Counted from the first letter of the stretch, positions 1 to 32,000 are shown. The stretch is 32,000 bases of DNA from Candidatus Saccharimonadota bacterium (GCF_047555085.1 NZ_CP180230.1:840001-872000); one strand, 5' to 3'. Notes: a model not told the origin generated them from the sequence alone. Program-made: numbers and translations.

Positions 1-3000
1 AAAGCCTAAGCATCTCAGGCAATCTTTCATCAGGAAGCTACAGTCCATTCGGCGCAAGCATCAATGATAGTTCAGATACATTGAGCACTCTTGATGTTGA
101 AAGATGGTTCACTACAAAGTATGCTAGCTCAGAGCCTACGGTAAGAAGTATCAATACTGAGAAACTATGGGAACTATCCCTGAACGGATCAAGCAGGGAT
201 GTAAACGTTCCTCTTGACTCTGTTGTAAATATTGAGCTAAACTCAAGCGATTACAAGTCACCAGTAATCATCTACAAGAATGATTCAGTCATCGCTGAGT
301 CTGATGGTGGTGTAGAGGGAATATTCTACAGAGAAAGTAATCTAAACGAGAGAGCATCCTATCCTATCAGAGCTGAGATCGATGAGTTCAACGAAACAAT
401 TATCTACGATATTACAGTTGGACAGGACGACCTATCACCTAATGTATCCCTTCAGAACCAGGAACGAATAGGCACCAACAAGATGAACTTCAGCTATGAG
501 GTTAAAGATAACTATCAGGGTTCCGTAGAGTGTTCACTGGCCATTGATGGAGATGTTAAGGCCCAGTCCCGTGTAGATCTGGATCTAGATAAGACATGGT
601 ACAGTAGTTCATTCTATACTGAAGATGCTCCTCATGGTGCAAACAGTTACAATATCAGCTGTACAGATAACTCAAACAATACAGCAAGCTACATCGGGCA
701 GTACGATCAGGATTTCAAGGCCCCTGAAATAGAGTTCACCAATCTTGAAGATGGACAGGATATATGGCAGTACAAGCCTCAGGTCAAGCTGAATATTGTG
801 GATACTCACAGCGAGGAAATTGACTACAATGTATACTACGCATATGACGAAGACATGAACACAGCTAACACAACTAGTAACAACACTGTGGAGACAGTAA
901 GGTTGCCAACTACCACTCGCTGGGGACTGGTAGACTTTGTAGTAGAGGCTGAAGACGACAAGAATCAGTCCAGAACAAAGTCAATTACTGTAGATCTCAA
1001 CGAGCCTTACGTTGATCTAATCAGTCCTGCAGAAGGGAACGATGAAAAGCGAGTACAGCACAATCCTAGCGAGCCAGGTAACAGAGAAGTACTACCAGAA
1101 ACCAGAGTTCAGAGACAGGATCCAAATGTTGTATTTGAGTTCAATTACACGGATCAGATACAGGACTCCACACAGTGTAGACTAATGGTTGACGGAACAG
1201 AGAAGGCAAATGGAACATACGCAACAAATACACCAGGAACATTCGATGTAACACTTGATCAGGGAATAAATCAGGAAGCTCACGTTGAATGTGAGAACGA
1301 AGTAGGCAACTACATCTCAAGCACCACAAGACATCTAGATATTGATTCAAATGATCCTTCAGTTGAAGCCGTAATATTTGAACAGGGCAACAACACCGCA
1401 TACACAGAGACAAAGGAGCATGAAGTCGATATAAGAATCTCCGATAATCTCATGGCTCCTGCGACATCACAGTCATTCTCAGGGAGAAGCAGATATGGTT
1501 CCTGTAATAAGGGCACAAGTACAGAACAGTATCCATTCCTTGAGATAAACGGCACTGACAACGCAATTAGTATGAGCCATAACTTTGACGGAGCAACAAA
1601 GAACGAGACTGTCCAGTTAGAAAGAGAAAGTTATGTATACGGTATAGCATCACTCCCTACACTTTTCAGCGGATGTAGCTACAACACCGCTACAGAACCT
1701 CTTGACTATGTTACAGAGAACTTCGGAAATCTCGGTGCTGGAGAGTACAACTTTGAGATGTGGGTACAGGATGAAACGGGTAACAGCATCAGCACAAAAC
1801 AGTATACTTACACAGTAGCTAAAGGAGATCCTGGAATATCTCTGTCCTCAGATAATGATAGAGCAAGCAACAATGAGATTATCAGAGACTCAAGCCCTGA
1901 GATCAGATGTTCAGCCTCTACAGATCAAGTAAGCACCACACTACTGAGAAACGGTCTTGAAGTAGACTCAGCGACAAACGGCGAGGATGTCCTTCAAGAC
2001 AACACCAACCTACCTGAAGGAACTTACACGTACAAATGTGAAACAGCAGGTAACGAAAACTTCAGCCAAAGTTCATCAACGAGAACCATAGATGTAGTGA
2101 AATACCTGCCTGATGAAGTAAAGATCTCGATGAACGGAGAGTTCGTCAACAAGACTGTAGAGTACGGTACACCTGTTGAACTAGATATAACATCCCGTTC
2201 AGGCAACGACAACAGCGAGCTAGTTGTAGATGGACAGACAGTTACAGCACCTCATACTGTAAACTATGAGACAGGAAACTACACAGTATTCGGAAACGCA
2301 TCAGGTTCATACCGTTTCAACGCATCCAATACAACAAGAGAACTAGAGGTAATAAGAACAAGCAACAACGTAAACCTTACCTCCAACGAGACAATCAATA
2401 CTGTAGAGAAGGAAAGCCTCTCACAGTTCAGTTATGGAAATTATGACGTCAGAATAATGAATATCGTAGAGGGACAAACACCTCAGATAACCTGTGAGTC
2501 AGATACAGCAAGCTCTACTACAAATATCACACGCTATGGAACAGTAGTATACGAAGGAACAGGTACAGACTCTAACATACTAGATGCCGCAGACGTAGGT
2601 GCAGGATTCTACAGGTACTCCTGTAAGACCAGTACAACAAAGAATTACAACAGTGCATCAGACGGAATATATGTAGATATACAGGAAGCACCAGAACCAG
2701 ACTACGTAACAGGTACAGATGGATCAGATGGATTCGACTTTACAAGTGGCGAAACAGAGAAGAATATTGAGATAGGTACAACAGTGGATGTAACATGTGA
2801 TACAGAACAGGATGTACCAACCACGCTATACTATGAAGGAGACGTAGTCAGTTCACCGGATACAAGGACATTCGACCAGACAGGAAACTACAACTACACA
2901 TGTGCCACAGAAAGCACTGATAACTTCAGGGCATCACAGAGAACCATAATCTACGATGTGATGAACAGAACCAGTACAGATCTGTACCTAAACGGAGGCC

Positions 3001-5840
3001 AAACCGACATAACCGTAGATCAAAATGAAGAAGTAGAAATAATTGGAGAGGTCAATGTAAGTGGTACTGAAGTTGAACTAAGGGATGGAAGAACTAGAGA
3101 CACAAGATTCTGGGTAGGAACAGATGGTAGAGCAGAGAAGAATCATACATTTAGCATCCCTGGAGAACATAAGATAACCGCACTACATCCAGAAGAGGAT
3201 GATTACTTCAGATCATCTGATTCGGCAACGGTCACCGTAAACGATGTCACGGCACCAGAGATAAGTCTAGACTCTCCTGCAGATGAATCAATCACAAGAG
3301 ACAACGACATCAACATCATCTACAATGCTAGAGATTACTCACAGTTCACCTGCAGCCTAGAGATAAACGATACTGTAGTAGATGAAAGAACAAACAGTGG
3401 CGGAGACAGATACAGATGGGAACGTGCAGTTATCGATATAAATAGGCCTAGTGGCGTATACGATTACCAGGTTAACTGTAAAGACGAGCATGGAAATACA
3501 AGAAGCTCCGATACTCGAGAGTTCAGACTCGATACAGAAGATCCAAACATCCAGATCAATGAAGATGCACTGGTTGAAACAGGAGATCCTTCACCAAGCA
3601 TCAACGTAACAACTTCAGATGTATCAAGCAGAGAAGTAAACGTAGAATTCTACGCAAATGCTACCGTAGACGATGAAAACCTGAATTACTGGGAAGAACC
3701 TCATCTTGAAGGCGGACAGAAGATAGCTGACTCCACAGGCCCAGCAGATACAACAAGACAAATAGAAACAGATCAGCTTGAACCAGGCCTGTACAAGATA
3801 AGTGCAAGAGTAGTAGATGAAGTAGGAAATGATTACTACATAGCAAATGATACAGATCTCAGGGTATTCGACAACATTACAATAATGGAGCCTGGAAATA
3901 ACGAGGGAGAAGAGTATGTGAACACGACAGATCCAGAGCTATCATTCAAGTATTATTCAGACGATGCCCCACTAACATGTGAAGTTGCAATAGATGGAAC
4001 AACATACGATAGCTTCACAGAGGGAGAAGACACCTGGATTAATAACACAGCTACAGAACTAGGCGTAGACACCGGTCTATCACAGGGATCCCACACTTGG
4101 GCAGTAACTTGTGGTACAAGCAACAGTGATACATTCACATTCGACAAGAACTTCTACGTGGATGTACAGGAACCTGAAATCGAATGGACACACGTCAGCC
4201 AACCTAGTGGTAGCTCATACACAGGAGACAGCATAACATACTCAACTGAAGTATCCGATAACTTTGAGATCGATACTGTAACAGTAGAAGCCGCATCAGA
4301 TTACCAGAAAGTACAGATGTACTGTGGAAACGACAACGTATGTACTGCTGATCTAAACCTTGAGCCAGGTCAGCACCACTACAACTACACTGTATGCGAT
4401 AAGGCTGGAAACTGCTTCAGCACAGATACAACAGAGTACACAATCGTTGACGAATCAGAGAGTATGAACCTGTACCTGAACGGCCAGCAGGACAACATCA
4501 CGATTACAGAAGATCCTGTAGTAAACATGACAGGAGAGTTCGTCCAGCCTAAGGAAGGAACAGTATACTTCTACGTAAACGACAGCCTAGAAGCAAGATG
4601 TGACCGAGGTACAGGATGTACAGCTGAAGAAAACTTCCTGACACCTAACGGAACATATGAGATAACAGCAGAGTTCTACAGCTTCACAGACTCAACGACA
4701 AACATCGAAACATACTACGTAAACGCACAGGTACCAGAATCAGAATTCGAAGGATACAAGCTAAGAAATCTTGCTCCCGGTAAAGAAGCCAGTCTAGATA
4801 ATAACCCTGTACAGAGCATCCTAGGCCTAGGCCTGCAGAACAACAAGAATGTATTACTGGGTAATGATGTAGGTCAGGATCTGGCTGCACAGCTAAATAT
4901 TGACTTCTCATCCAACATTGATGCAGCCGACATGATATTCGATACAGATAGATCTGCTGGAAAATCCTTCATCCACCTAGAAAGAGATTACAGCCGCGTG
5001 GTCAGGAAGGATCTACTTGTACCTCGAATAGAGGACACAGGTAAAGTAAGAGTCTGTCCAGGAGCACAGAGCCTAGCAGCAGTCACTCCAACCTGTAACA
5101 ATGGATACAACATTTCAACAGGAGAAACAGTAGGATCAGTAACGATGAGTGAAGTGACAATTAACGGACAGGACTACTACGAAGTCAGAGGGATTACAGG
5201 AACAGGAGGAGAAGAGATAGGAACAACAAGCACAGATGACTCCCTCAACGAACCTGCAGAGGCAGAAGTAACAAACTCAGAGACACTCGATGAATGGGGA
5301 CCATACACACCTACGGAATCAAGCATTGACCTAGACGGAGGTAACGTGACAAGCGGCAACCTAAGCAGCAAACAGTCAACAGATAACTGGGCAGGACTAT
5401 ACGGTAACGCAACCGGAGACCTAGTCCTAGGAGGAGAAAGCACACTGTACAGATGGGATGCCGAACCTAGTGTTGTGCTTGCAGCAAATGCAACTGTAAC
5501 ATGGAGCAACCTGACAGAGGCAACAGCTACAGAAATCGATGAATACTACGACATCGGAGACGGATCAGACAACACCGAAGCAACCATGGACACTGCAACA
5601 ACAATAACAATCGGCAACACGACATTTGACCCAGTAAGATCCGTGAAGACATTCAACGGATCCGGCGTACCTACATGGACAACAGGAGCATTATCAGATG
5701 GAGAAGTACCAGTCTTCGCTGGAAAGGCCAGAACGAATCAGACAACAGCATTCAATGGAGAGATAGCAAACTACCAGATGATGATCCCAACAGGCGGAGA
5801 CCGAATACTGGGATACTCCATGTACATGGACATCAAGTAA
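1..5840 (+). CDS. Giant secreted/cell-surface repeat protein, 5'-truncated by the window edge (at least 1945 aa visible)
   Basis: The frame is open from nt 3: nt 3-80 read SLSISGNLSSGSYSPFGASINDSSDT with no stop, so the TTG at 81 in the ORF track is not the real start. Stop is TAA at 5838-5840. The protein is made of tandem beta-sandwich/Ig-like modules bounded by D-x-x-x-P-x-I/V junctions (DFKAPEIEF, DVTAPEISL, DTEDPNIQI, DVQEPEIEW). There are recurrent paired-Cys motifs (SVECSLAIDGD...NISCTDNSNN; STQCRLMVDGT...HVECENEVGN; FTCSLEINDT...YQVNCKDEHGN; LTCEVAIDGT...WAVTCGTSNS) and dozens of N-x-S/T sequons. No C-terminal TM segment is visible. Confidence 0.85.
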   Translation, partial: SLSISGNLSSGSYSPFGASINDSSDTLSTLDVERWFTTKYASSEPTVRSINTEKLWELSLNGSSRDVNVPLDSVVNIELNSSDYKSPVIIYKNDSVIAESDGGVEGIFYRESNLNERASYPIRAEIDEFNETIIYDITVGQDDLSPNVSLQNQERIGTNKMNFSYEVKDNYQGSVECSLAIDGDVKAQSRVDLDLDKTWYSSSFYTEDAPHGANSYNISCTDNSNNTASYIGQYDQDFKAPEIEFTNLEDGQDIWQYKPQVKLNIVDTHSEEIDYNVYYAYDEDMNTANTTSNNTVETVRLPTTTRWGLVDFVVEAEDDKNQSRTKSITVDLNEPYVDLISPAEGNDEKRVQHNPSEPGNREVLPETRVQRQDPNVVFEFNYTDQIQDSTQCRLMVDGTEKANGTYATNTPGTFDVTLDQGINQEAHVECENEVGNYISSTTRHLDIDSNDPSVEAVIFEQGNNTAYTETKEHEVDIRISDNLMAPATSQSFSGRSRYGSCNKGTSTEQYPFLEINGTDNAISMSHNFDGATKNETVQLERESYVYGIASLPTLFSGCSYNTATEPLDYVTENFGNLGAGEYNFEMWVQDETGNSISTKQYTYTVAKGDPGISLSSDNDRASNNEIIRDSSPEIRCSASTDQVSTTLLRNGLEVDSATNGEDVLQDNTNLPEGTYTYKCETAGNENFSQSSSTRTIDVVKYLPDEVKISMNGEFVNKTVEYGTPVELDITSRSGNDNSELVVDGQTVTAPHTVNYETGNYTVFGNASGSYRFNASNTTRELEVIRTSNNVNLTSNETINTVEKESLSQFSYGNYDVRIMNIVEGQTPQITCESDTASSTTNITRYGTVVYEGTGTDSNILDAADVGAGFYRYSCKTSTTKNYNSASDGIYVDIQEAPEPDYVTGTDGSDGFDFTSGETEKNIEIGTTVDVTCDTEQDVPTTLYYEGDVVSSPDTRTFDQTGNYNYTCATESTDNFRASQRTIIYDVMNRTSTDLYLNGGQTDITVDQNEEVEIIGEVNVSGTEVELRDGRTRDTRFWVGTDGRAEKNHTFSIPGEHKITALHPEEDDYFRSSDSATVTVNDVTAPEISLDSPADESITRDNDINIIYNARDYSQFTCSLEINDTVVDERTNSGGDRYRWERAVIDINRPSGVYDYQVNCKDEHGNTRSSDTREFRLDTEDPNIQINEDALVETGDPSPSINVTTSDVSSREVNVEFYANATVDDENLNYWEEPHLEGGQKIADSTGPADTTRQIETDQLEPGLYKISARVVDEVGNDYYIANDTDLRVFDNITIMEPGNNEGEEYVNTTDPELSFKYYSDDAPLTCEVAIDGTTYDSFTEGEDTWINNTATELGVDTGLSQGSHTWAVTCGTSNSDTFTFDKNFYVDVQEPEIEWTHVSQPSGSSYTGDSITYSTEVSDNFEIDTVTVEAASDYQKVQMYCGNDNVCTADLNLEPGQHHYNYTVCDKAGNCFSTDTTEYTIVDESESMNLYLNGQQDNITITEDPVVNMTGEFVQPKEGTVYFYVNDSLEARCDRGTGCTAEENFLTPNGTYEITAEFYSFTDSTTNIETYYVNAQVPESEFEGYKLRNLAPGKEASLDNNPVQSILGLGLQNNKNVLLGNDVGQDLAAQLNIDFSSNIDAADMIFDTDRSAGKSFIHLERDYSRVVRKDLLVPRIEDTGKVRVCPGAQSLAAVTPTCNNGYNISTGETVGSVTMSEVTINGQDYYEVRGITGTGGEEIGTTSTDDSLNEPAEAEVTNSETLDEWGPYTPTESSIDLDGGNVTSGNLSSKQSTDNWAGLYGNATGDLVLGGESTLYRWDAEPSVVLAANATVTWSNLTEATATEIDEYYDIGDGSDNTEATMDTATTITIGNTTFDPVRSVKTFNGSGVPTWTTGALSDGEVPVFAGKARTNQTTAFNGEIANYQMMIPTGGDRILGYSMYMDIK

Positions 5841-5861
5841 AAGACACCAACATTTCTCAAT

Positions 5862-5876
5862 CTTTTTCTTCATTTA
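5862..5876 (+). terminator. Oligo-T tract downstream of the giant gene (candidate archaeal terminator)
   Basis: The sequence ctttttcttcattt begins about 22 nt after the TAA stop. Archaeal RNAP terminates at T-runs. This call rests on sequence context only. Confidence 0.35.
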
Positions 5877-5952
5877 TACAATGAGTGTTCATCCAGAAAG
5901 AACAGAGACTGAATTTAAACTATAAAACTTCACAGCGAATTCAAGAATACTG

Positions 5953-5975
5953 GAGGCCTTGAAAAGTAAGGCCTC
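5953..5975. promoter_or_regulatory. Perfect 8-bp inverted repeat (GAGGCCTT-7 nt-AAGGCCTC) 9 nt upstream of tRNA-Leu
   Basis: gaggcctt (5953-5960) and aaggcctc (5968-5975) are exact reverse complements separated by gaaaagt. Each arm carries one AGGCCT site. Confidence 0.5.
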
Positions 5976-5983
5976 TATACCTA

Positions 5984-6066
5984 GCCGGGGTAGCCAAGTG
6001 GCCAAAGGCGACGGACTTAAGATCCGTTCCCGCAGGGGTTCCGGAGTTCAAATCTCCGCCCCGGCA
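5984..6066 (+). tRNA. tRNA-Leu (anticodon UAA), class II with long variable arm, no encoded CCA
   Basis: The cloverleaf folds by hand. Acceptor is GCCGGGG/CCCCGGC with discriminator A. D stem is GCC/GGC with an 11-nt loop. Anticodon stem is ACGGA/TCCGT with loop CTTAAGA, giving anticodon TAA and G37. The variable arm is 14 nt (tCCCgcaGGGttc). T stem is CGGAG/CTCCG with loop TTCAAAT. Total length is 83 nt. Confidence 0.88.
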
Positions 6067-6125
6067 TATACTATATAAATTTGAGCGGGATTTGATGGCA
6101 GAAGCTCCAGTAATATGCGAGCTTT

Positions 6126-6148
6126 GAGTTCAAATCTCCGCCCCGGCA
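6126..6148 (+). repeat. 23-nt exact direct repeat of the tRNA-Leu 3' end (T-arm 3' part plus acceptor 3' strand plus discriminator); orphan tRNA fragment or att-like scar
   Basis: gagttcaaatctccgccccggca at 6044-6066 is repeated exactly at 6126-6148. The second copy has no matching GCCGGGG 5' acceptor strand upstream, and its T-stem 5' strand is degenerate (ttgag instead of cggag), so it is not a functional tRNA. Confidence 0.8.
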
Positions 6149-6238
6149 AACTTCTACTCTAACTGAATCTGAAGAGAAAAATATTTACGATAGAAATATC
6201 GATAGCCAGTGCCTGACAAAAAATCTAGAAGAACTATA

Positions 6239-6586
6239 TTAGTTTCCTAACTGGGAGAGCTCCTTCTGAAGATTCTGAAGCTCGTTATGTATTTCATCTA
6301 CAGAACTGTCCGTTTCAATCTCTATATCAGAGGACTGAGGAATAGATGCAGATTCCTGTCCTTCAATCTCTGGCATCTCCATATCTATATTCTCCAGATT
6401 CTCATTCAGTTCCTGAACATTACTGTACATCATATCAAGGGCCTGTTCTTTGATTTCTCTGACTTCCTTAAGCACCTTTGAGGCCTCATTGATGTTGTTG
6501 ATTACTCTTTCGATAGATGAAAGATTATTGAGTATCTCTTCGTGGCCATCCACCCTTACGTACATCTGGTCTTCTTCAGGTGCCAT
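6239..6586 (-). CDS. Small acidic coiled-coil protein, function unknown (115 aa)
   Basis: ATG-initiated ORF with the acidic composition typical of the window and heptad-like stretches (NINEASKVLKEVREIKEQALD; DEIHNELQNLQKELSQL). An A/T box (ttatttttaa on the minus strand, nt 6611-6620) lies about 25 nt upstream of the ATG, consistent with a leaderless transcript. I recognise no family. Confidence 0.55.
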   Translation of the reverse strand: MAPEEDQMYVRVDGHEEILNNLSSIERVINNINEASKVLKEVREIKEQALDMMYSNVQELNENLENIDMEMPEIEGQESASIPQSSDIEIETDSSVDEIHNELQNLQKELSQLGN

Positions 6587-6653
6587 ACAGAGAAATTGTT
6601 TTGAGGCCTATTAAAAATAACGAGTGAGAACGACGTTAGTTGGACAAACTGAT

Positions 6654-7166
6654 CTACTTTTCCTGATAACGCCCCTCGTAGGCCTGATCTGTCTCCTCAA
6701 TTTTCTCGAATACGATGTGATTAACTCTAGCGTTCTCCTTTATCTCCACGCCTTCGCTGTTCTCAACTATCAGAAGGAATTCGCTTGTACCACGGAAGCC
6801 CGCATCCCATACACCGTTCTCGATTGTACACCCCATTCTAAGCAGGGAGCTACGCGGATATGCAAATCCGATGATATCTTCCGGCAAGTCGACTATCTCA
6901 TTTGTCTTTATCTTGTAGGCGCCTGGCTCCAGATTCCACCAGCCGTAATCATCTTCTTCATCTTTCTTAGAGGCCTCTACTTTCTCTGTCTCCGGAATCT
7001 CTCTTTCGCTGTTGGAGAAATCCAGCTTCCCTGACTCCTTGAACCTGTGGATCTCCTTAGCTGTCAGATCAAAACCGTTAGGTGTCAACTGCTTATCAAG
7101 ATCGATAAAATTTTCCACAAGGCCTTCCTCTACGGCCTCTTCCAGCTGCTCATTATTCAGTTTCAT
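6654..7166 (-). CDS. dut: dUTP diphosphatase / dCTP deaminase-superfamily protein (archaeal short form, 170 aa)
   Basis: Core motif is FAYPRSSLLRMGCTIENGVWDAGFRGTSEFLLIVEN, followed by ARVNHIVF and a C-terminal YEGRYQEK. This matches the PRSS..R.G....g.wDaGf.G pattern of the dCTP deaminase/dUTPase family. The short length fits the archaeal dUTPase type better than a bifunctional DCD-DUT. Confidence 0.7.
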   Translation of the reverse strand: MKLNNEQLEEAVEEGLVENFIDLDKQLTPNGFDLTAKEIHRFKESGKLDFSNSEREIPETEKVEASKKDEEDDYGWWNLEPGAYKIKTNEIVDLPEDIIGFAYPRSSLLRMGCTIENGVWDAGFRGTSEFLLIVENSEGVEIKENARVNHIVFEKIEETDQAYEGRYQEK

Positions 7167-7199
7167 ATAACGGTAAAATAGTGATACAGAGATAAAAAA

Positions 7200-7799
7200 T
7201 TGAATGGAAAGATCTGTAGATTAAAAACAGATGAAGTAGAAAAATATAGCGTGAAACTTGAGGAAGCTGTTTCCGATGTATTCAATCCTCTTCTTGTAGT
7301 TCCCTCAGCTGCATTGATCTTTCTCAATTCTCAACTAGGACTTTTCGAGGCCTTCTACTGGACTTCTCTGGGAGTCATGACAAGTCTGACACCTACACTG
7401 ATTGCAGTATACTTTACAGAAAATAGAGGCCTCAGAATAGATTCAAGAGATAAACGTCCAAAGGCCTACATGGTTGGACTGGTTTCAATGGCGGGAACAC
7501 TGGCTATCTTCCAGTTGATATCTGCCCCGTCTGTAATAGTTTCAGCTGGTATAGGCGGAATCCTGAGTATAGTGGCTTTCGCTGCAGCCAACTACTTCAG
7601 CAAGGTAAGCATACATACCGGAGCTATGACTTTATCAGCTGCTGTACTGTATCAAGTAACGCCCCTAATATCATTTACTGGATTTGTATTGGCAGTGCTG
7701 ACAGGGTGGAGCCGGGTAAAGCTGGAGAGACATACATTGATGCAGGTGATCTACGGTGCTGTTCTAGGCCTGACATGCGGACTTCTGCTGGTGCTGTGA
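7200..7799 (+). CDS. Multi-pass membrane protein, probable PAP2-superfamily phosphatase
   Basis: About 5 hydrophobic segments. PAP2-like motifs are present: RIDSRDKRP (C1-like), SIHTGAM (C2, S-x-H) and SRVKLERHTLMQV (C3, SR-x5-H, with the final D replaced by Q). The start is uncertain: TTG at 7200 leaves only 33 nt to the divergent dut start, and an in-frame GTG at about 7249 is an alternative. Confidence 0.5.
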   Translation: MNGKICRLKTDEVEKYSVKLEEAVSDVFNPLLVVPSAALIFLNSQLGLFEAFYWTSLGVMTSLTPTLIAVYFTENRGLRIDSRDKRPKAYMVGLVSMAGTLAIFQLISAPSVIVSAGIGGILSIVAFAAANYFSKVSIHTGAMTLSAAVLYQVTPLISFTGFVLAVLTGWSRVKLERHTLMQVIYGAVLGLTCGLLLVL

Positions 7800-7846
7800 G
7801 ATGAGAAATAAAAACTTGTATACCGGAGTTTCTACTGTGAATCATA

Positions 7847-9157: not shown

Positions 9158-9162
9158 AAAAT

Positions 9163-9184
9163 CTTTCAGAGGCCTTTCAGAGGC
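9163..9184. repeat. Perfect tandem duplication of an 11-mer (ctttcagaggc x2) in the convergent spacer between aspS and the next gene
   Basis: ctttcagaggc occupies 9163-9173 and again 9174-9184. One AGGCCT site spans the junction between the two copies, and an AGGCCC near-site follows the second copy. The two halves can also form an imperfect hairpin (agaggcc / ggcccct). Confidence 0.7.
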
Positions 9185-9208
9185 CCCTACATATCTTCTT
9201 ATTATTTC

Positions 9209-10089: not shown

Positions 10090-10129
10090 AAGCGCGATAG
10101 CTGGCAAAATTTTCAAACCTGTGCTTTTT

Positions 10130-24292: not shown

Positions 24293-24766
24293 GTGGAGAA
24301 AATTATTATAGTTGCGTTCGATGAGGAAAGAGCTATAGGGAAGGACGGAGAAATTCCTTGGCATTATTCGAGCGACATGAAGCATTTCAGGGAGAAGACA
24401 ACAGGAAATACAGTTTTGATGGGGCGTAAGACTTACGAGTCTCTTCCTGAAGATTTCAGGCCTCTGCCGGATAGGAAAAATATAGTGTTGACGAGATCGG
24501 AGTTCGATGCCGATGAGAGTGTGTCTGTAGCGAACAGTCTTGATGAGGCCTATAGTATTGCGGAGGACCAGGAAGGAGATCTGTTTATCGCCGGAGGTTC
24601 CTCGATATACCGTCAGACTCTGGATGATGCTGATAGAGCCATTATAACGCGCATACCCGGAAAACATGATGGAGATACGTTCTTCCCTGAGCTTGGTGAA
24701 GACTGGATTAAATCTTCAGAGAGGGAGGAAAAAGGACTCCAGTTCCAGGAGTTTACCAGAAGTTAA
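24293..24766 (+). CDS. folA: Dihydrofolate reductase
   Basis: IIIVAFDEERAIGKDGEIPWHYSSDMKHFREKTTGNTVLMGRKTYESLPEDFRPLPDRKNIVLTR...LFIAGGSSIYRQ. The start is GTG with a GGAGTGA SD-like element 7 nt upstream, inside the end of thyA. Confidence 0.88.
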   Translation: MEKIIIVAFDEERAIGKDGEIPWHYSSDMKHFREKTTGNTVLMGRKTYESLPEDFRPLPDRKNIVLTRSEFDADESVSVANSLDEAYSIAEDQEGDLFIAGGSSIYRQTLDDADRAIITRIPGKHDGDTFFPELGEDWIKSSEREEKGLQFQEFTRS

Positions 24767-27700
24767 TTTCCAATGCTTCTCTCAAAGTGTCTGTGAACTT
24801 TCTTGATCTTATCCTCTATATCTTCAACTCCTTTGCGCGACAGGAAGTCAGAATCCCTGACTTCAGCAAGCTTTTTCTCAGCTCCTGAAAGATCTCCCTG
24901 ACTCATCCTGTCAGAGGCCTCTTCAGAGGCCTGGACTATCTCTTCATCCTCGAACATGTTGTCCAGTTTCTCCAGTTTATCCTCCGTAGACTCTTCCATG
25001 GAACTATCTTCGACAGCAGAAGGTTCTGAGGTATTTGAAACGCTTTCTCTCCTCCGGAATCCTTGTGCTCCTGAACCTGATGTCTTGAAAGAACTACCTT
25101 TATTCCCTGCTCCACTATGCCGAGCAACATATACTGCCAGGCCTGCTATAAGAGTCATAACTGTGGCTATCAGTGTATAAGGCGTCTCTTTTTCCTGCTC
25201 AGGGATACTAAACGTCTTTCTTCCAGTATAGATTTGCTCGCCGTTTTTGAGAGTTGTTTCAAGAGTATACTCTCCTGGACTTATTCCTTCTAGACTTATT
25301 GAACCGTTGTATTCTTCTCCATTGATAATCTGTACGTTCTCCACTGTTCGCACTTTATTACCCCGTACATCGTAGATAACTGTTTCAACTGTCGATTCTC
25401 CCTGTATATCTTTATTTACATCTGAGCTGTATGTGGCAGAATCATTTTGTACATCTACCTCGACTTCAGTCTCCTCTGATTCAGAGGCCAGTATTTCAAC
25501 GTTGAGAGTTGATGTAGTTGATTTAGATCCTGCTGATGCGACTACTGTTCCCGTGTATTCTCCTGGCGCAGATTGACCTGAAACAGGTATCTGTACATCT
25601 CTAGAGGCCTCTACGTCGAATGTCTCCGAGTACGAAGCGACACTGTCTAAACCTTCCGTAGATATCGAAACTTCAGCAGGTTCGGAAACAGAAAGCTCGA
25701 ATGTATAAGACGATGAGGCCTCTCTTTCAACCTGTATCTGTGCTTCCGCAGGTGATAGCTGGATATCAACCCCTCCTACAGGATCAAGTGTACCTGAGCC
25801 GTTGTTCTTTTCTGATTCATTCTCTGTGCCTTCACCGGATTCATTTCCTTCATCCGTGTCATCAGGCGGGAGGAAGCCTCCACCTCCACTTGATCCACCA
25901 CCCGAAGATCCTCCCGACCCGGATCCAGAATCCGAATCTTCATTTTCACCGGTTTCATCTTGAGTTGTGGAATCCACAGCAAGAGTATTCGTTGAGGCAT
26001 GTACAGTATTTCCTGCATAGTCCCTGATCTTGATTTCAGGCCTGTAATCCTCCAGATCTACGGATCTATTTACAGTGAAAGTCCTGGAAAAAACAACTTC
26101 ATCAACTTCCACCGGCGCTGAAATCTCAGAAACTGTTGAAACGTTTATACTGACAGATTCGATCCCTGTAGTATTGTCCGAAACATTAATATTTACTTCA
26201 AGCTTATCTCCAAGGCCTAGAGGCTCTTCAGCTCCCTCGGTAGCATTTATATAGGCCTTGTTTACTTCTGGCAGAGTATTGTCAATAGTTACGTTTTCCT
26301 CTACGGTTCCTGTATTACCAGCATCATCAGAGGCATTCAATCTGACTTTTGTTTTTCCATCATCTATTTCTGTTGTGTTCCAGGCCTCTTCATCGATTAT
26401 TTCGTTCCAGGTTTCATTTCCATACCTGTAATCTATAGAGGATATATCCTGAGAGGCCTCAAGTTTATCAGATATGTTTATGATGCCTGATAGGTTTTCT
26501 CCAAGTGCACTGATATCGAGTTCTGGAGAAGAGAGATCTATCTGGAACTCGCCTATATCGTTACGGACTATATCATTGCCATCGTAATCCTCAACATTTG
26601 ATACATGTACAGTAACGTTTTCCTCTTGAGACCGGTTAATTACCTGGAATTCTCCGGACCAGTATGTCTCGTTATCGTATGACCCCGATACATCATAATC
26701 CGGGCCTCCCTGTATATCGACATAGGCCCGTCTTGAATTGTTGACCGGCTTGCTGAAGTTTATGGTGATGCCCACGGTTCTATCTGCATCGTCTATGTTT
26801 AGCGGAGTTGAAACATTCAAGCTGTAATCTGCCTTTGGCCCTTCTGCATATGGATCTGTAGCCTGAACAGTATTGTCTACAGCGTTACCAGCTCTATCAA
26901 CCACAGTCTCTGAATCCTTGATGGCAAACTCCGCAGTATAGCTTGGATCCTCCAGAGAGACGTTAACAGTACATCTCTTCGATCCCTGACTGCATGGAAG
27001 TATATCGAAGCTTGAGGCCTGAACTGATTCCGTGATTATTTCGAAGTCAGAGGCCTCCAGTGTGGAACTATCAAGGCCTGTCTCATTATCAAATACCTGG
27101 AAGGACATCCTGGTATCGTTAAAGTATGTGCCGTTAACTAGGACAGGTCTATCTGCATCCAGATGGACTATCTCAGCCGTCTGCAGATCTGTTTGGAGGC
27201 CCGCTTTATCAAGCGCCGAGATCTCTATACTGTAGTTTCCGGATTCCAGGCCTGAGGTCTCTAGATCTACAGATCTATCCGGATTCTCTGATGTCTCCGA
27301 TACTGTTTTATCGAGTACAACGGTGCCGTCTTCTACCAGTTTTATCGTGGTTTGATTCTGATTTTTCTCTACGTAACTGTATTCAATACCTAGATTTCCA
27401 GGCTGAGTGAAGATATCCTGAGCAGGACTTTCCACGGATAAGTCCGATGGAGCAGTATTGTCTATTTCTGAAGCATAATTCTTGCTTCTGAAGTTTCCTG
27501 CATCATCTGTTGCATTCACACGGAAATCAACAGATCCCTCTGAGGCCTGAGTTGAATCCCATGATGAAGGATTGTCTACTTCAGTCCATTCAGAGCCATC
27601 ATTGAACTCATAACTCGATGAAACAGCGTCTTCTCCTATCTGTATCTCCGAAGCCAGATCTATACTGCCGGATATGTAATCAGGTAAGCTCCCCTGTATA

Positions 27701-30700
27701 CTTGGATCTACGTTATCTACTTCTATGCTTACAGAGTCTGTTCCGCTGTTTTCTACATCGTCAGTATATGTGAGCCATAGCTGTGTCTGGAATTCTGATA
27801 GAGGCGTGCTCCACTCTGTCTCGTTCTGTATGCTTGAAAGCTCTGCTATCGTCTGATTGTTTCCAGTCTGATCCTCGAAAACCCATACCACGTTTTCGAC
27901 ATCATCTTTATTGTCTCCTGAACTGTTGAGCAGCAAAGTTCCGGAAACAACTTCTCCTTCGGACAGACCTTCTACGACAGGCTGCGGCACCACAGTATCA
28001 ATCTTGAAATCCGTGGATTTGGAGGAGGCCTGGATATTTCCGGAGTCATCTGATGCGTTACCTACAGTTACTTGAGCGACTACGCCATCACTGTTGCCGA
28101 AAGTATACTCTCTGGAGAAAGTTGTGGAATTAACCCATGTGCCGGAACCGGAAGACTTTACAGAGGCCTCTTCAGAGAACTCTGCATCCGGTATTACGGA
28201 AGTTTCCATTCCCTCCGTGTAAGTCACGCTTAATTTAGCTTCCCCATCTTCAGCCACATCCTCCATACTCAACGATTTAATCTCTGGTGGCACACCATCT
28301 TCCGTAGATACACCGTACAGATCACGAGAGTTTCCTAGAGAATCTCTAGTACTGAGAACTAAATCCGGAGTATCACCTGTAGAGAACTCACTCGATTCTA
28401 TGGCCAGGCCCGAAATTTGTTCAGCATCCTGGTCAAAGCCTTCAGCATCTGCATCCAGGAAGCTAACGTAAGATGCATCCACTAGATTAAGTTCATCGCT
28501 TAATGTAACGTTTATAGCAGTAGTATTATACGTTACAGCCGAATCAACTACTGGAGGAGTGCCGTCCGGTACTGCAGAAGTATTGGATGAGTTAGGGCCT
28601 TGATTCAGGGCTATGTCGACGGCTGCAACTTTGTAACTGTAGTTAACGCCTTCTGAAGGAGGATTGTCAGTGTAAACCGAAGAATCTGTACGTCCAATCT
28701 CGGAGTAACTGCTTGAATCGTTCCTGTACACGACGTACTCATTTAGATCTCCTGTCAGAACATCGTCCCAGCTTAGATCTATAGCGCCTCCTTCTACTGC
28801 AGAGGCCTCTAAGGATGTTGGTGCATCAGGAATATCATTGTTTATCTCAACGCCATCATCATCTGTTTCAGTGTCTGACTGCCCTGAAACTGTATTTACC
28901 GTCACATTTCCACTGTATGTAACACCGTGGCTATCTCCCTCTGAGATCTGAAGAGTAGTACTGTATACTCCATCGCCTGAAGTGTCTGAGGCCTCTTTCA
29001 CTCCTCCAAATTCTCCAAAGTCAACTGTAACATTCTTTATATCGTCTATACCATTTTCTGTACTGTTCCAGGACACATTTATCACATCTCCAGGATTTGC
29101 AATTTCGTTTTCATACTTATCCTGTTCAAGGAAGGTGTATATCGCAGTAGGTTCAATTTCTACTGGAGCACTATCAACAGAGACGCTGTTATCAGTAGAG
29201 GTCTCTACAGAGTTACTTTCGATATCTGTAGCTCTCACTGCTGGACTGTAGCTCTCGATAGTTGCTGACTCATTTATCTCAAAAATACCTGTAAAGTTCC
29301 CATCGGGCTGCTCTTCCAGTTCTACGAAACCTTGAAGAGTTGTAACTTCCGAAACATTGACCTTAACGGTTTCAACCATCGTGGCATCATCAGTAGCATT
29401 CACTTCTACAGAGAAATTGTCTCCTTCATTCAGTACACCTTGTTCAGCTGCATCGTCTTCTATACGTATAACTGCTTCTTCAACAACAGGTGGCGTATTG
29501 TCAACAGTTGAAGTGACAATCAGAGAATCACTGTTTCCTGTATCATCTGTCGCATTTACTCTGAAGTCTACTTCTCCACTTGAGGCCTCTGATGAATCCC
29601 AGGAAGTCGGTATTCCTATATCAATCCATCCTGATCCATCATTGAATTCATAGTTCACTATACTTCCGTCGCCAGTGTTTTCAGCGAAATATGTGGAAAG
29701 ATCTACTGTATCTGATAGATTCTGAGCTGTAAATTCGTTTAGTGTTACTATTTCAGGCTCCTCTGTATCAACGAGGAATGAATCGCTGTCGTTCTCTAAC
29801 TGAATGCTGTTTCCGTAGTCATCGGTGACTCCAGTGATATTTACGTAGGCCTTGCGGTCTTCATCCTCATCTTTTATCTGGAACTCGCCGCTCCAGTGAG
29901 TTGAATTTAGATAGTCTCCCGAAGCAGTGTATGCTGTTTTCAGGTTGTTTATCTCTATCGATGGAGTCTTGGATGTGTTCAGTGACTCATTAAATCCAAG
30001 AGTGATGTTGACAGCGCCAGGAGAGTAAGAGTTGTTTACTGGAGTTGAAACGTTCAGTTTCATCGATTCAAGTGCGGGGCCTATAGAGTCAGTTTCTTCA
30101 AGTATGACCTCTCCATCGTTTCTGGTATTCCCAGCCAGATCTGAGATAGATGATCCTGATTTAAGGCCTGCTGTAAGCTGATCAAGATCTGTCTGTCTGT
30201 CGAGACTGACATCTACCGTACAGTTCAAGTTACCGTCACCACATCCTCCGACGGAGAAAACTGCTGAGATATCCTCTTTTATCTCGAAATCGCTGCCGTC
30301 GAAGCTGTACTCAATCCCTGCCTCATCATATACATCAAATCTGTAATCAGTAGCACCCAGTTTCCGGGAGTTATTGAGCACAGGCGCGGTATTATCTACA
30401 ACGAGAAGATTCTCCGCTGAAGTTGAGGCCTGTCTCTGAACCTTATCACTAACTTCAACCTCAACAGTATAGTTCACGCCTCCAACAAGATTTTCAAGCT
30501 GTGTGAACTTCACACCACCATCAGGATTAGATTCTGATTCCGAGATATTTCTCTTTAGACCTACCTGGCCAGAGCTATTCACAAGACGCACTACCGTCCA
30601 GTCAGGATTAACTTCCTGATAACTGTAGTTAACAGAAAAGTTCTCTGAACTCTGAAGATAATTTTTAGATACAGGAACATCAATTGAAAGATCTGAAGGC

Positions 30701-32000
30701 GAGTATCCATCTACTATAACAGCAGAGGCCTCTGAATCATTTCCTTTCTGGCCGATAGTATTCGTAAGATTCAACTCAAGATCATAGGTGCCATTAGACG
30801 GCATTTTAGACGATGAAAAAGTTCTGGAGGCCTCTGTATTTTCACCTGAAGTTAGATCACTGAAGATCTGGCTTTGAGATCCTACAGTGATATTCAGCTG
30901 ATCAGGATCATCCTCCGTGTAATTGAATAAGACTTCAAGGCTTTCTGTAGGCCTGACATATGCAGGATTTTCTCCCGTTGGCGACTTGATGTCTATCTGT
31001 GGAGGTTGCTTGACTACTTCTACAGCACCAAACTGTTCTGTAGTATTGGAGTTGCTGTTTGAAGATGTATCTGTGGCAGTGGCAGTTGCTGACTGTACGC
31101 CCGATGTCGCTGAGCTTTGTACAGTAGCATTCGTTCCATAAACGTTGCTTTCCAGCGTTCCATCCTGATCCCAGTCGTAGTTAGAAGCCTGTTCAGAAGT
31201 CATTGAGACAGATCCAAGCGAATCACCGAATCCGGAGAGGTTTGTCTCCACAGATGCAACTCCAGTTCCATCAGTCACTTTTGCAGAAACACGTACTTTC
31301 TCTCCTTCCTCCACGACGTCATCACCATCAAAATCTGTAAGGTTCTTCTCTGTTACTTCGGGCGGAACGTGATCCATATTCTGAATTATGACCCACCCCG
31401 AATCCTGAATATTTCCAGCTACATCTCTTATACTTCCTGTTATGCTGAAGTTCAGCTCCTCTGAATCAATCTTGTCTGAAAGAACTACCGTCGCATTCTC
31501 TTCATTCTCTCCTGTAGAAATACTGCTGGAGTTAACAGAGTTAATCTGGCCATAATCAACGCTGAAGGCCTCTGCTGTTATGGTAGAAGGATCAAGGCCT
31601 GTAGTATCATCCAGGAAAGATGCATTGAATGATGTGCTATTCACCTTGAATCCCTGATCAAGCGAGGGAGCTACTGTATCTTTTGTAGGTGTTTTAGATA
31701 CTGTGGAGCCCGTGTTACCTGCCTGATCTGTTGGAGTAACTTCAACTGTTATGGCTCCTTCATCAAGTCCAGAAACATCCAGACTGCCGCTGAATGTTCC
31801 TCCAGAGAACGTGAAAGTATCTGAAACAGTATTTCCGAGATCTGAAACACTGATCTGGACTTCACCGCTGTCATCATTTGTGACTGTGCCGTTTACTTTG
31901 AAATCAAGCTGTTCGCTCGAGTTAACTATGCCGTCCTCAGCAAGCGGCGTGTATATAGAGGCCTCAGGTGCAACAGTATCAACTTTGATCGTCTGTGATG
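24763..32000 (-). CDS. Giant type-I membrane-anchored cell-surface repeat protein, 5'-truncated by the window edge (at least 2411 aa visible)
   Basis: The frame stays open upstream of the track's GTG at 31644. I read every codon from 31645 to 31998 and found no stop (...VTPTDQAGNTGSTVSKTPTKDTVAPSLDQGFK-VNSTSF...). The body is made of tandem Ig-like modules bounded by VDNTAPV / VDNTPPVV / IDNTAPSD / IDNTLPEV / VDTEEPEI / IDLSSPEL / VDNVDPSI junctions. One FN3-like domain lies at about 28563-28830 (LSWDDVLTGDLNEYVVYRND...YSYKVAAVDIALNQGPNS). A Gly/Ser linker is at 25876-25935 and a single TM helix (YTLIATVMTLIAGLAVYVA) at 25123-25179. A 118-aa charged cytoplasmic tail follows, ending at the stop at 24763-24765. 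Confidence 0.88.
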   Translation of the reverse strand, partial: SQTIKVDTVAPEASIYTPLAEDGIVNSSEQLDFKVNGTVTNDDSGEVQISVSDLGNTVSDTFTFSGGTFSGSLDVSGLDEGAITVEVTPTDQAGNTGSTVSKTPTKDTVAPSLDQGFKVNSTSFNASFLDDTTGLDPSTITAEAFSVDYGQINSVNSSSISTGENEENATVVLSDKIDSEELNFSITGSIRDVAGNIQDSGWVIIQNMDHVPPEVTEKNLTDFDGDDVVEEGEKVRVSAKVTDGTGVASVETNLSGFGDSLGSVSMTSEQASNYDWDQDGTLESNVYGTNATVQSSATSGVQSATATATDTSSNSNSNTTEQFGAVEVVKQPPQIDIKSPTGENPAYVRPTESLEVLFNYTEDDPDQLNITVGSQSQIFSDLTSGENTEASRTFSSSKMPSNGTYDLELNLTNTIGQKGNDSEASAVIVDGYSPSDLSIDVPVSKNYLQSSENFSVNYSYQEVNPDWTVVRLVNSSGQVGLKRNISESESNPDGGVKFTQLENLVGGVNYTVEVEVSDKVQRQASTSAENLLVVDNTAPVLNNSRKLGATDYRFDVYDEAGIEYSFDGSDFEIKEDISAVFSVGGCGDGNLNCTVDVSLDRQTDLDQLTAGLKSGSSISDLAGNTRNDGEVILEETDSIGPALESMKLNVSTPVNNSYSPGAVNITLGFNESLNTSKTPSIEINNLKTAYTASGDYLNSTHWSGEFQIKDEDEDRKAYVNITGVTDDYGNSIQLENDSDSFLVDTEEPEIVTLNEFTAQNLSDTVDLSTYFAENTGDGSIVNYEFNDGSGWIDIGIPTSWDSSEASSGEVDFRVNATDDTGNSDSLIVTSTVDNTPPVVEEAVIRIEDDAAEQGVLNEGDNFSVEVNATDDATMVETVKVNVSEVTTLQGFVELEEQPDGNFTGIFEINESATIESYSPAVRATDIESNSVETSTDNSVSVDSAPVEIEPTAIYTFLEQDKYENEIANPGDVINVSWNSTENGIDDIKNVTVDFGEFGGVKEASDTSGDGVYSTTLQISEGDSHGVTYSGNVTVNTVSGQSDTETDDDGVEINNDIPDAPTSLEASAVEGGAIDLSWDDVLTGDLNEYVVYRNDSSSYSEIGRTDSSVYTDNPPSEGVNYSYKVAAVDIALNQGPNSSNTSAVPDGTPPVVDSAVTYNTTAINVTLSDELNLVDASYVSFLDADAEGFDQDAEQISGLAIESSEFSTGDTPDLVLSTRDSLGNSRDLYGVSTEDGVPPEIKSLSMEDVAEDGEAKLSVTYTEGMETSVIPDAEFSEEASVKSSGSGTWVNSTTFSREYTFGNSDGVVAQVTVGNASDDSGNIQASSKSTDFKIDTVVPQPVVEGLSEGEVVSGTLLLNSSGDNKDDVENVVWVFEDQTGNNQTIAELSSIQNETEWSTPLSEFQTQLWLTYTDDVENSGTDSVSIEVDNVDPSIQGSLPDYISGSIDLASEIQIGEDAVSSSYEFNDGSEWTEVDNPSSWDSTQASEGSVDFRVNATDDAGNFRSKNYASEIDNTAPSDLSVESPAQDIFTQPGNLGIEYSYVEKNQNQTTIKLVEDGTVVLDKTVSETSENPDRSVDLETSGLESGNYSIEISALDKAGLQTDLQTAEIVHLDADRPVLVNGTYFNDTRMSFQVFDNETGLDSSTLEASDFEIITESVQASSFDILPCSQGSKRCTVNVSLEDPSYTAEFAIKDSETVVDRAGNAVDNTVQATDPYAEGPKADYSLNVSTPLNIDDADRTVGITINFSKPVNNSRRAYVDIQGGPDYDVSGSYDNETYWSGEFQVINRSQEENVTVHVSNVEDYDGNDIVRNDIGEFQIDLSSPELDISALGENLSGIINISDKLEASQDISSIDYRYGNETWNEIIDEEAWNTTEIDDGKTKVRLNASDDAGNTGTVEENVTIDNTLPEVNKAYINATEGAEEPLGLGDKLEVNINVSDNTTGIESVSINVSTVSEISAPVEVDEVVFSRTFTVNRSVDLEDYRPEIKIRDYAGNTVHASTNTLAVDSTTQDETGENEDSDSGSGSGGSSGGGSSGGGGFLPPDDTDEGNESGEGTENESEKNNGSGTLDPVGGVDIQLSPAEAQIQVEREASSSYTFELSVSEPAEVSISTEGLDSVASYSETFDVEASRDVQIPVSGQSAPGEYTGTVVASAGSKSTTSTLNVEILASESEETEVEVDVQNDSATYSSDVNKDIQGESTVETVIYDVRGNKVRTVENVQIINGEEYNGSISLEGISPGEYTLETTLKNGEQIYTGRKTFSIPEQEKETPYTLIATVMTLIAGLAVYVARHSGAGNKGSSFKTSGSGAQGFRRRESVSNTSEPSAVEDSSMEESTEDKLEKLDNMFEDEEIVQASEEASDRMSQGDLSGAEKKLAEVRDSDFLSRKGVEDIEDKIKKVHRHFERSIGN

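Follow-up and report, generated by a model that had tools for sequence, protein, structure and literature searches.

A giant DUF2341 gene upstream of tRNA-Leu in a nanohaloarchaeal chromosome: a probable hypervariable replacement cassette with family-specific T-tract avoidance and a partial AGGCCT imprint

Replacement-type flexible genomic islands are known for cell-surface loci such as O-antigen and capsule, and for the glycoprotein islands of Haloquadratum walsbyi and of marine bacteria. Hyper-abundant palindromes and uptake sequences, HIP1 in cyanobacteria and DUS/USS in Neisseria and Haemophilus, serve as markers of resident DNA. Nanohaloarchaea are obligate ectosymbionts. Two reports on cultivated nanohaloarchaea describe surface proteins of the LamG/concanavalin-A-like type that are specific to strains, and giant proteins termed 'SPEARE' (Reva et al. 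2023, PMC10266531; Hamm et al. 2019, PMC6642349); in the matching passages of the former, the giant proteins figure as genome features peculiar to single organisms and are suggested to mediate attachment to the host. As for transcription termination, the number of U4 tracts and aCPSF1 jointly set its efficiency in Methanococcus maripaludis (Li et al. 2021, PMC8716108). Here we analysed a stretch of 32,000 nucleotides (GCF_047555085.1, NZ_CP180230.1:840001-872000; hereafter, the window), which opens within a giant surface-protein gene, G1, that ends shortly upstream of a tRNA-Leu gene. As judged from its sequence and that of its relatives, G1 is very probably a hypervariable replacement cassette in a fixed chromosomal slot.

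The initial annotation had described nt 1-5983 as a single giant gene of outlying composition. The outlier stands, and the extent has to be corrected: the reading frame runs without a stop up to the left edge, and the window holds the last 1945 codons of a gene of 9.2 kb in total, the full protein of which has 3075 aa. The last 1945 residues of P0001, a 'DUF2341 domain-containing protein' of Ca. Nanosalina sp. VS9-1, are 100% identical to the G1 product. The neighbouring genes of the window are nanohaloarchaeal (very acidic proteins; AspRS 75-88% identical to nanohaloarchaeal genomes). These matches identify the source as Ca. Nanosalina sp. VS9-1, a nanohaloarchaeon. Note that the first 3.4 kb of G1, which lie to the left of the window, were examined as protein only.

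A family search among 5.8 billion proteins returned five other full-length members, so that six alleles were compared in total (W denotes the allele of the window, and L0xx denotes contigs of relatives). The DUF2341 giant alleles are colinear and of nearly the same length (3075-3103 aa), and the slot of every allele is the same: S13-S4-S11-rpoD on one side, then the giant gene, tRNA-Leu, and orf115-dcd-(membrane gene)-aspRS-smc on the other. This gene order was seen in L033, L041/L042, and L043, and partially in L045 and L035; tRNA-Leu lies 3' of the giant gene in L033, L035, L041, L043, and L045. In distant relatives without the giant gene, the order is rpoD-tRNA-Leu(CAA)-orf115. The slot contains the giant gene, plus one call of a 34-aa open reading frame (ORF) in L041/L042, and no integrase was found among the called genes and precomputed Pfam hits of the slot contigs (L033, L041/L042, L043, and others).

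Across the relatives, the alleles in the slot are 34-58% identical, as against 91-97% for the flanks. Between W and L033, the flank proteins are 91-95% identical and the giant proteins 56-58%; between L033 and L043, AspRS is 97% identical, S4, S11, and RpoD together are 96% identical, and the giant proteins are 38% identical. The L033 allele shares 58% identity with that of W, 55% with that of L035, and 46% with that of L041. With the sister host L043 the figure is 38%, so that the L033 allele stands closer to the one of L041, whose host has an AspRS identity of only 76%. Read from identity matrices over the six alleles, and not from a formal phylogeny, the alleles are related in a way that conflicts with the relatedness of their hosts, and they fall into at least two deep classes. 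The DNA identity between L033 and L043 is 72-98% from rpoD across the promoter spacer to a point ~350 nt inside the ORF, beyond which it falls abruptly to 32-50%. At four-fold sites, the identity of W and L033 is 0.36-0.64 in the flank genes (chance, ~0.28) and 0.45 in the giant gene (chance, 0.39), where it equals chance over the first 1200 aligned codons.

Because the alleles are divergent, incongruent with their hosts, and bounded by sharp breakpoints, we read the locus as a replacement cassette and not as a tRNA-integrated island. Deeply divergent alleles would circulate among close and more distant lineages, and homologous recombination, anchored in the conserved flanks and in the opening ~350 nt of the ORF, would exchange them. 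We infer such recombinational exchange through the conserved flanks as the process; an alternative reading is that the alleles are balanced and long-lived. A scan of metagenome contigs with a three-allele profile gave remote DUF2341 matches only, and no homologue was found in a scan of viral contigs for the giant family. A diversity-generating retroelement was dismissed by inference only: no reverse transcriptase was present among the ORFs examined, and the 6-9 kb over which the bias (see below) extends exceeds the variable regions of such elements.

The features of the window to which the following analysis refers are these.
1..5840 (+): G1, last 1945 codons of the 3075-aa gene; frame from nt 3, stop codon TAA at 5838-5840.
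3444..3449: AGGCCT, read as AGG-CCT (Arg-Pro); lineage-specific, from an amino-acid change (NRPSG in the window, YKSSG in L033, NKESG in L035).
3785..3790: AGGCCT in CCA-GGC-CTG (Pro-Gly-Leu); the only G1 site in common with the L033 allele.
4823..4834: tandem AGGCCT, AGGCCTAGGCCT, encoding Leu-Gly-Leu-Gly-Leu; lineage-specific.
5863..5867 (+): T5 tract, the first of the whole visible gene region, 23 nt past the G1 stop; probable oligo-T transcription terminator, to judge from the sequence.
5953..5975: AGGCCT pair forming a hairpin, GAGGCCT-N9-AGGCCTC, directly upstream of the tRNA; the host-type density restarts here.
5984..6066 (+): tRNA-Leu(TAA), found by ARAGORN and Rfam; conserved right neighbour of all alleles.
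6126..6148 (+): exact 23-nt copy of the 3' end of the tRNA, 59 nt downstream of it.
6239..6586 (-): orf115, with which the conserved right flank begins; 94% identical in L033.
24763..32000 (-): second giant surface-protein gene (3545 aa), used as the comparator; runs off the right edge.

The compositional discontinuity was measured as follows. The window contains 108 AGGCCT sites, as against 7.1 +/- 2.4 in dinucleotide-preserving shuffles. Exactly four lie to the left of nt 5940 (3444, 3785, 4823, and 4829), and the next ones to the right (5954 and 5969) stand just 5' of tRNA-Leu(TAA). The density is 0.69/kb in G1 (nt 3-5840) and 3.9/kb to the right of it, with 3.7/kb in the 22 ordinary genes of the window and about 5/kb in intergenic DNA; the second giant gene, with 29 sites over 7.2 kb, has 4.0/kb. 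The G1 coding strand is 36.4% A and 20.0% T. In G1 versus the neighbours, the codon fractions are 0.44 and 0.08 for CTA (Leu), 0.62 and 0.29 for GTA (Val), 0.60 and 0.30 for GCA, 0.65 and 0.43 for ACA, 0.69 and 0.44 for AGA, 0.66 and 0.50 for AAC, and 0.79 and 0.67 for TAC. The tetranucleotide CTAG occurs at 4.45/kb in G1 and at 1.3-1.6/kb elsewhere. When the observed/expected tetranucleotide profiles of 2-kb windows were each correlated with the right-hand region, r was 0.55-0.65 inside G1 and 0.81-0.92 for all windows to the right of it; with AGGCCT masked, the values were 0.60-0.67 and 0.78-0.90.

Most of what the initial annotation had reported by eye is thus borne out by measurement, namely the number and positions of the four AGGCCT sites, the A-rich and T-poor coding strand with its codon preferences (CTA, GTA, GCA, ACA, AGA, AAC, and TAC), the abundance of CTAG, and the switch of codon usage and tetranucleotide profile at about 5.9 kb, which persists with AGGCCT masked; its remark that the drop in density is not general to giant genes agrees with the second giant gene. 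The neighbours were also said to favour AAT and GAT; they show no preference for AAT (0.49-0.50), and GAT is indeed preferred, but in both gene sets (0.64 versus 0.68). No tandem or dispersed repeats at the DNA level were found that account for the G1 composition. Strand skew of replication or transcription was rejected as its cause, given that neighbours on the same strand are without the bias; transcription-linked deamination, moreover, would increase T on the coding strand, not decrease it.

The AGGCCT sites were then accounted for codon by codon. In resident genes the motif is found mainly in the frames xAG-GCC-Txx and xxA-GGC-CTx, and it is found in intergenic DNA too; it is realised at 71-80% of the sites that the amino acids permit, and the permissive tripeptides are 1.6-3.2 times as common as amino-acid shuffles predict. 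In the ordinary genes and the second giant gene they number 5.1-5.2/kb (1.6-2.6 times expectation); for resident genes together with the second giant family, over W, L039, and L043, they stand at 1.7-3.2 times expectation with a realised fraction of 0.71-0.78. Because permitted sites are used to this extent and permissive tripeptides are enriched, the AGGCCT-generating process has therefore remodelled both the synonymous sites and the proteins of resident genes. G1 has seven permissive tripeptides (1.2/kb, 0.68 times the amino-acid-shuffle expectation), four of which are realised (0.57). The AGGCCT deficit of G1 is mostly a matter of few permissive tripeptides, plus incomplete synonymous conversion. 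The collapse of AGGCCT described in the initial annotation consequently needs a qualification: G1 is depleted relative to host genes, yet its four sites compare with 0.51 in synonymous shuffles, an ~8-fold excess over the expectation from its own codon usage. Among the alleles in AGGCCT-rich hosts, G1 included, permissive tripeptides stand at 0.7-1.4 times expectation with a realised fraction of 0.36-0.79; in AGGCCT-free hosts the corresponding values are 0.8-1.0 and 0.00-0.07.

Site by site, 18 of the 22 AGGCCT sites of the flank genes are common to W and L033 (82%), though the four-fold sites there are only ~48% identical, as against one of four in the giant gene; W and strain SG9 have 7 of 14 flank sites in common. 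The flank sites are thus old, and such an inherited common stock is missing from the giant gene. Three of the four G1 sites arose in its own lineage, some via amino-acid change. The Pro-Gly-Leu of the remaining one is encoded by CCA GGC CTC in L033 and by CCA GGA CTA in the AGGCCT-free L035. The alleles of L043 and L045, which are 80% identical, share two of nine sites. The trait itself (~4/kb, 15-fold over shuffles) was seen in W, L002, L003, L033, L039, and L043; it is confined to one nanohaloarchaeal clade and is absent in L001, the AspRS of which is 88% identical. No publication was found in literature searches for AGGCCT in nanohaloarchaea and for VS9-1. Two side observations may be added here. 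In L033, L043, and L045, the giant gene and rpoD each end in a stop codon that AGGCCT overlaps or adjoins. L001 (JBLGBK010000002.1), whose AspRS (88%) is the closest among GTDB representatives, bears the label 'MAG: Colwellia polaris' (MAG, metagenome-assembled genome); given its nanohaloarchaeal gene order and content, the bin or the label is probably wrong.

We lean, by a little, towards partial amelioration of G1, with residence time and not constraint limiting AGGCCT. Resident genes would have had about 75% of their permitted sites converted and their proteins enriched in permissive tripeptides, and the cassette, with too little uninterrupted time in AGGCCT-driving genomes, would have undergone partial synonymous conversion with no enrichment at the protein level.

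The best surviving rival dispenses with exchange: the gene would evolve very fast in place under diversifying selection, and its AGGCCT density would be a steady-state plateau set by amino-acid turnover and nucleotide constraints. The colinear alleles of nearly constant length suit this explanation, as do the similar AGGCCT densities (0.66-0.98/kb) of most alleles in AGGCCT-rich hosts and the gain of sites in place in each lineage, partly by non-synonymous change. It does not account for hosts that are 96-97% identical in their flanks (L033 and L043) and carry alleles of two classes, one of them nearer to the alleles of distant hosts; nor for the abrupt loss of identity ~350 nt into the ORF, nor for synonymous sites that are at chance identity in the giant gene and not in the flank genes. 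The second giant gene provides a further comparison. In its product, Ig-like domains are combined with a PQQ beta-propeller and a membrane anchor at the C-terminus; the orthologues, found at a conserved DHFR-thyA locus, share only 44-58% identity; and the closest homologue, in L039, is 58% identical in a more distant host (DHFR, 69%) and has 11 of the 29 AGGCCT sites in common. It is thus as divergent as G1, yet AGGCCT-rich and fully imprinted, with host-like codon usage, no gradient, and no avoidance of T-runs. Simple in-place fast evolution fits these data poorly, and we regard it as unlikely.

The replacement cassette has, in addition, a codon bias of its own. T-ending codons are swapped in G1 for A-ending ones in four-fold boxes and for C-ending ones in two-fold boxes, and the change grows along the gene: from 5' to 3' of the visible stretch, the fraction of A-ending codons (A3) rises from 0.47 to 0.66 and that of T-ending codons (T3) falls from 0.32 to 0.14, the corresponding changes in the L033 allele being 0.34 to 0.63 and 0.39 to 0.15. 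The odds ratio of A3 over T3 in the second versus the first half of the gene, stratified by codon family, is 1.5-2.3 (z 3.2-6.1) in five of the six alleles, as against 1.0-1.1 in three alleles of the second giant family, and the gradient is present in alleles of both classes irrespective of the host. The codon fractions of G1 correlate with those of the C-terminal part of the L033 allele at r = 0.97 despite saturated synonymous sites, with those of the window genes at r = 0.81, and with those of the L033 ribosomal-protein and rpoD genes at r = 0.59. Because alleles with saturated synonymous sites share both the bias and the gradient, the codon bias is a property of the family itself and not the signature of a donor.

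The second explanation offered in the initial annotation was high expression, that is, an envelope or S-layer gene under strong translational selection. In a fuller form of it, a major envelope or S-layer-like protein would be so abundantly made that selection for Watson-Crick-decoded A- and C-ending codons sets its codon usage and, as a side effect, shuts out AGGCCT with its GCC or GGC. In keeping with it are the kind of replacement (A-ending in four-fold and C-ending in two-fold boxes), the maintenance of the bias across saturated alleles, a predicted secreted glycoprotein as the product (76-86 sequons), and the 5'-to-3' rise, as the nonsense-error cost model predicts, in which ribosome drop-off is costlier further along the message. 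The explanation failed, however, when the codon usage of ribosomal-protein and rpoD genes of three close relatives was examined: they favour T-ending four-fold codons (T3, 0.44-0.45 in L033/L043 and 0.42 in L045; A3, 0.26-0.31), have host-like codon log-odds scores, and keep AGGCCT at 2.0-3.1/kb in L033 and L043 and at 1.3/kb in L045 (2 sites in 1.5 kb). An Akashi-type test gave no significant excess of A3 at conserved positions (Mantel-Haenszel odds ratios 1.11, 1.10, and 0.90). Furthermore, the depletion of T-runs goes beyond codon choice (see below) and is an effect of context, the scarcity of AGGCCT comes mostly from missing permissive tripeptides and not from codon choice at permissive sites, and the G1 protein has no anchor at its C-terminus like that of haloarchaeal S-layer glycoproteins. 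We consider translational selection quite unlikely as the cause. Some nucleotide-level selection peculiar to G1, of the T-tract avoidance type, seems to act instead.

Runs of T were counted against synonymous shuffles. In the six DUF2341 giants pooled, 36 runs of T>=4 were found versus 100.3 in the shuffles (z = -8.6), as compared with 84 versus 86 in the second giant family and 122 versus 89 in ordinary genes. Runs of T>=5 occur at 1.02/kb in ordinary coding sequences and once in the 47.2 kb of the giants past their first kb, and none is present in G1 from nt 3 to 5840. The depletion of T-runs and the gradient are specific to the DUF2341 giant family. Generic avoidance of homopolymers (slippage) was discarded as the principal cause: the DUF2341 giants show just a mild depletion of A-runs (ratio 0.72), and G/C-runs are depleted equally in all gene classes. 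Past the stop codon of the giant gene, by contrast with its interior, a T5-T6 tract follows within 18-23 nt in W, L033, L043, and L045, and T>=5 tracts follow about 45% of stops generally, versus a background of 5-8% (about 7-fold).

A possible cause, which we put forward tentatively, is selection against U-tract terminator signals, U4+ tracts being the signal of both intrinsic and aCPSF1 termination in archaea, so that the T-avoidance of the family would amount to proofing against termination. Avoidance of T would shield the 9.2-kb transcript from premature termination, and the cost of termination would grow with the length already transcribed, so that the bias would strengthen from 5' to 3'. 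To our knowledge, the elimination of such tracts as selection against premature termination has not been described. If true, avoidance of U tracts may shape how very long genes of archaea use their codons. A still bolder joint reading, of which we are rather doubtful, is that codon usage proofs a giant archaeal gene against termination while the AGGCCT drive acts as a two-speed clock that exposes cassette swapping of a protein for interaction with hosts or viruses. In such a clock, synonymous conversion would come first and amino-acid remodelling later, which would date the residence of a segment; if this is true, a hyper-abundant palindrome can time the residence of DNA in a lineage.

Taken as a whole, the composite explanation, in which a replaced cassette, partial amelioration, and T avoidance act together, is in our judgement reasonably likely. 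Several points weigh against it. Only six alleles were available among 5.8 billion proteins, and the AGGCCT counts within the cassette are small (4-15). The density in alleles of AGGCCT-rich hosts is uniform (0.66-0.98/kb), so that a plateau set by constraint is possible; the N-terminal third of the L033 allele, with 3.4/kb, is an exception to the uniformity. The ribosomal-protein proxies come from relatives (AspRS 91-92% identical) and amount to ~2 kb per genome. No gradient is present in the L041 allele (host GC, 51%), though T-runs are still avoided there. The second giant family is longer (about 3500 aa) and shows neither T-run avoidance nor the gradient; length alone is therefore not the cause, and another factor such as expression level is required. 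The first explanation of the initial annotation, that of a recently acquired gene or a hypervariable island not ameliorated to its host, survives in part under the composite explanation: hypervariability stands, the AGGCCT imprint is intermediate, and insertion of an island at tRNA-Leu falls away. A compositional outlier can thus combine gene-intrinsic nucleotide selection and incomplete amelioration, which are usually treated as alternatives.

That G1 is a recently acquired foreign island, put into tRNA-Leu by a mobile element and retaining the composition of its donor, is highly improbable: the switch of composition does fall in the spacer before the tRNA, a 23-nt duplicate of the tRNA 3' end does lie nearby, and one family member (L035) is on an AGGCCT-free contig of 38% GC, but G1 lies 5' of the tRNA, the tRNA-fragment repeat is downstream and does not flank G1, no integrase or mobile-element gene is present in the slot of five contigs, every known allele has the same slot and the same promoter region, the tRNA and orf115 are adjacent also in relatives without the giant gene, no homologue was found in the scan of viral contigs, and the AGGCCT count of G1 already exceeds 8-fold what its own codon usage predicts. 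No tRNA fragment was found in the spacer between rpoD and the giant gene, and the sole repeat (6126-6148) lies 3' of the tRNA; judged from the gene order, tRNA-Leu is a conserved neighbour of G1 and not its attachment site. As an observation in its own right, the orthologous tRNA of L033 (18728-18983) has a ~124-nt insertion after the anticodon loop, apparently an intron overlooked by ARAGORN, and the spacer of the window aligns to the 3' part of this insertion. The L033 tRNA also has a partial 5' copy 54 nt upstream, with similar partial copies in L006 and L008. These features, together with the exact 23-nt copy at 6126-6148 of the window, suggest intron loss, gene conversion, or recombination scars at tRNA-Leu.

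The protein was examined over its full length. The Pfam domain DUF2341 (PF10102) is located at aa 940-1015 of P0001 (56 bits; cut-off, 23.4), which places it ~350 nt to the left of the window, and scores above the gathering score in P0001-P0003 (56-70 bits, aa ~935-1015). Ig-like Pfam matches are scattered over the full protein, every one under its cut-off. A single hydrophobic segment, N-terminal and signal-like, is present; there are 86 N-x-S/T sequons versus 51 expected, 32 cysteines, and a pI (isoelectric point) of 4.1, and the DUF2341 giants as a group have 76-86 sequons (1.6-2 times the expectation) and 30-34 cysteines. An anchor of the haloarchaeal S-layer type (PGF-CTERM-type) is absent from the C-terminus, where the protein ends ...ANYQMMIPTGGDRILGYSMYMDIK without a hydrophobic stretch. 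A sequence search of PDB with the giant protein gave zero matches, the predicted structure of the conserved C-terminal 375 aa (3-row alignment) reached a pLDDT of 30 and was unusable, and the tRNA was the sole Rfam match on the window. From these properties, the product is predicted to be a secreted, acidic, heavily N-glycosylated, Ig-like-rich protein with a conserved C-terminal region, presumably exposed on the surface, and may serve in interaction with hosts or viruses. The locus is accordingly a concrete candidate for what decides the engagement of nanohaloarchaea with hosts or viruses, its alleles differing by 40-65% between strains otherwise 96-97% identical in the flanks.

Two neighbouring loci also differ between W and L033. 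The gene for a PAP2-family membrane protein between dcd and aspRS (7200-7799, +) is 43-47% identical to that of L033, as against 91-95% for its neighbours, and its four-fold sites match less often than chance would give. This small gene may be a second one that has been replaced. At 9209-10221 (-), two adjacent genes for small membrane proteins of 140 and 197 aa are 54% and 29% identical in L033, and relatives have a single 146-aa gene in place of the pair. The 197-aa ORF overlaps a hydrolase gene by 92 nt, and its TTG start is probably wrong.

Finally, the locus was compared with the known systems. As in replacement-type flexible genomic islands, the position of G1 is fixed between conserved flanks, the alleles are far more divergent than the genome, allele and host relationships are incongruent, the product is a predicted exposed glycoprotein, and the composition is atypical. 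Unlike such islands, G1 is a single 9.2-kb gene and not a cluster, one of its breakpoints lies within the ORF, so that the signal-peptide end tracks the host lineage, and its composition is largely intrinsic to the family. The likeness to HIP1 and DUS/USS is that AGGCCT is short, many-fold over-represented, and present in several frames and in intergenic DNA, with motif-poor regions being atypical or recently exchanged; the difference is that it is a 6-mer at about 4/kb in one nanohaloarchaeal clade only. Like the giants of cultivated nanohaloarchaea, the G1 protein is nanohaloarchaeal, acidic, predicted to be secreted, and rich in Ig-like matches, and by the matching passages of Reva et al. 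(PMC10266531) it fits the class of strain-specific lectin-domain surface proteins. Unlike SPEARE, it lacks a VirB4/TraG-like ATPase domain as well as a membrane anchor at the C-terminus, and has 3075 aa as against 5000-9400; it has, in addition, a DUF2341 domain. The matching passages of Reva et al. do not mention a codon gradient, T-run avoidance, or AGGCCT. In U-tract/aCPSF1 (FttA) termination (PMC8716108), T4+ tracts of the coding strand act as the signal; the locus has in keeping with it the T5-6 tract after the giant stop and the general enrichment of T>=5 after stops; the use of the signal is inverted inside one gene family, in which T4+ tracts are nearly eliminated. The locus thus belongs to a known kind, that of hypervariable surface-protein loci, to which it adds T-tract avoidance with a 5'-to-3' gradient, specific to the family, and a partial imprint by a clade-specific palindrome.

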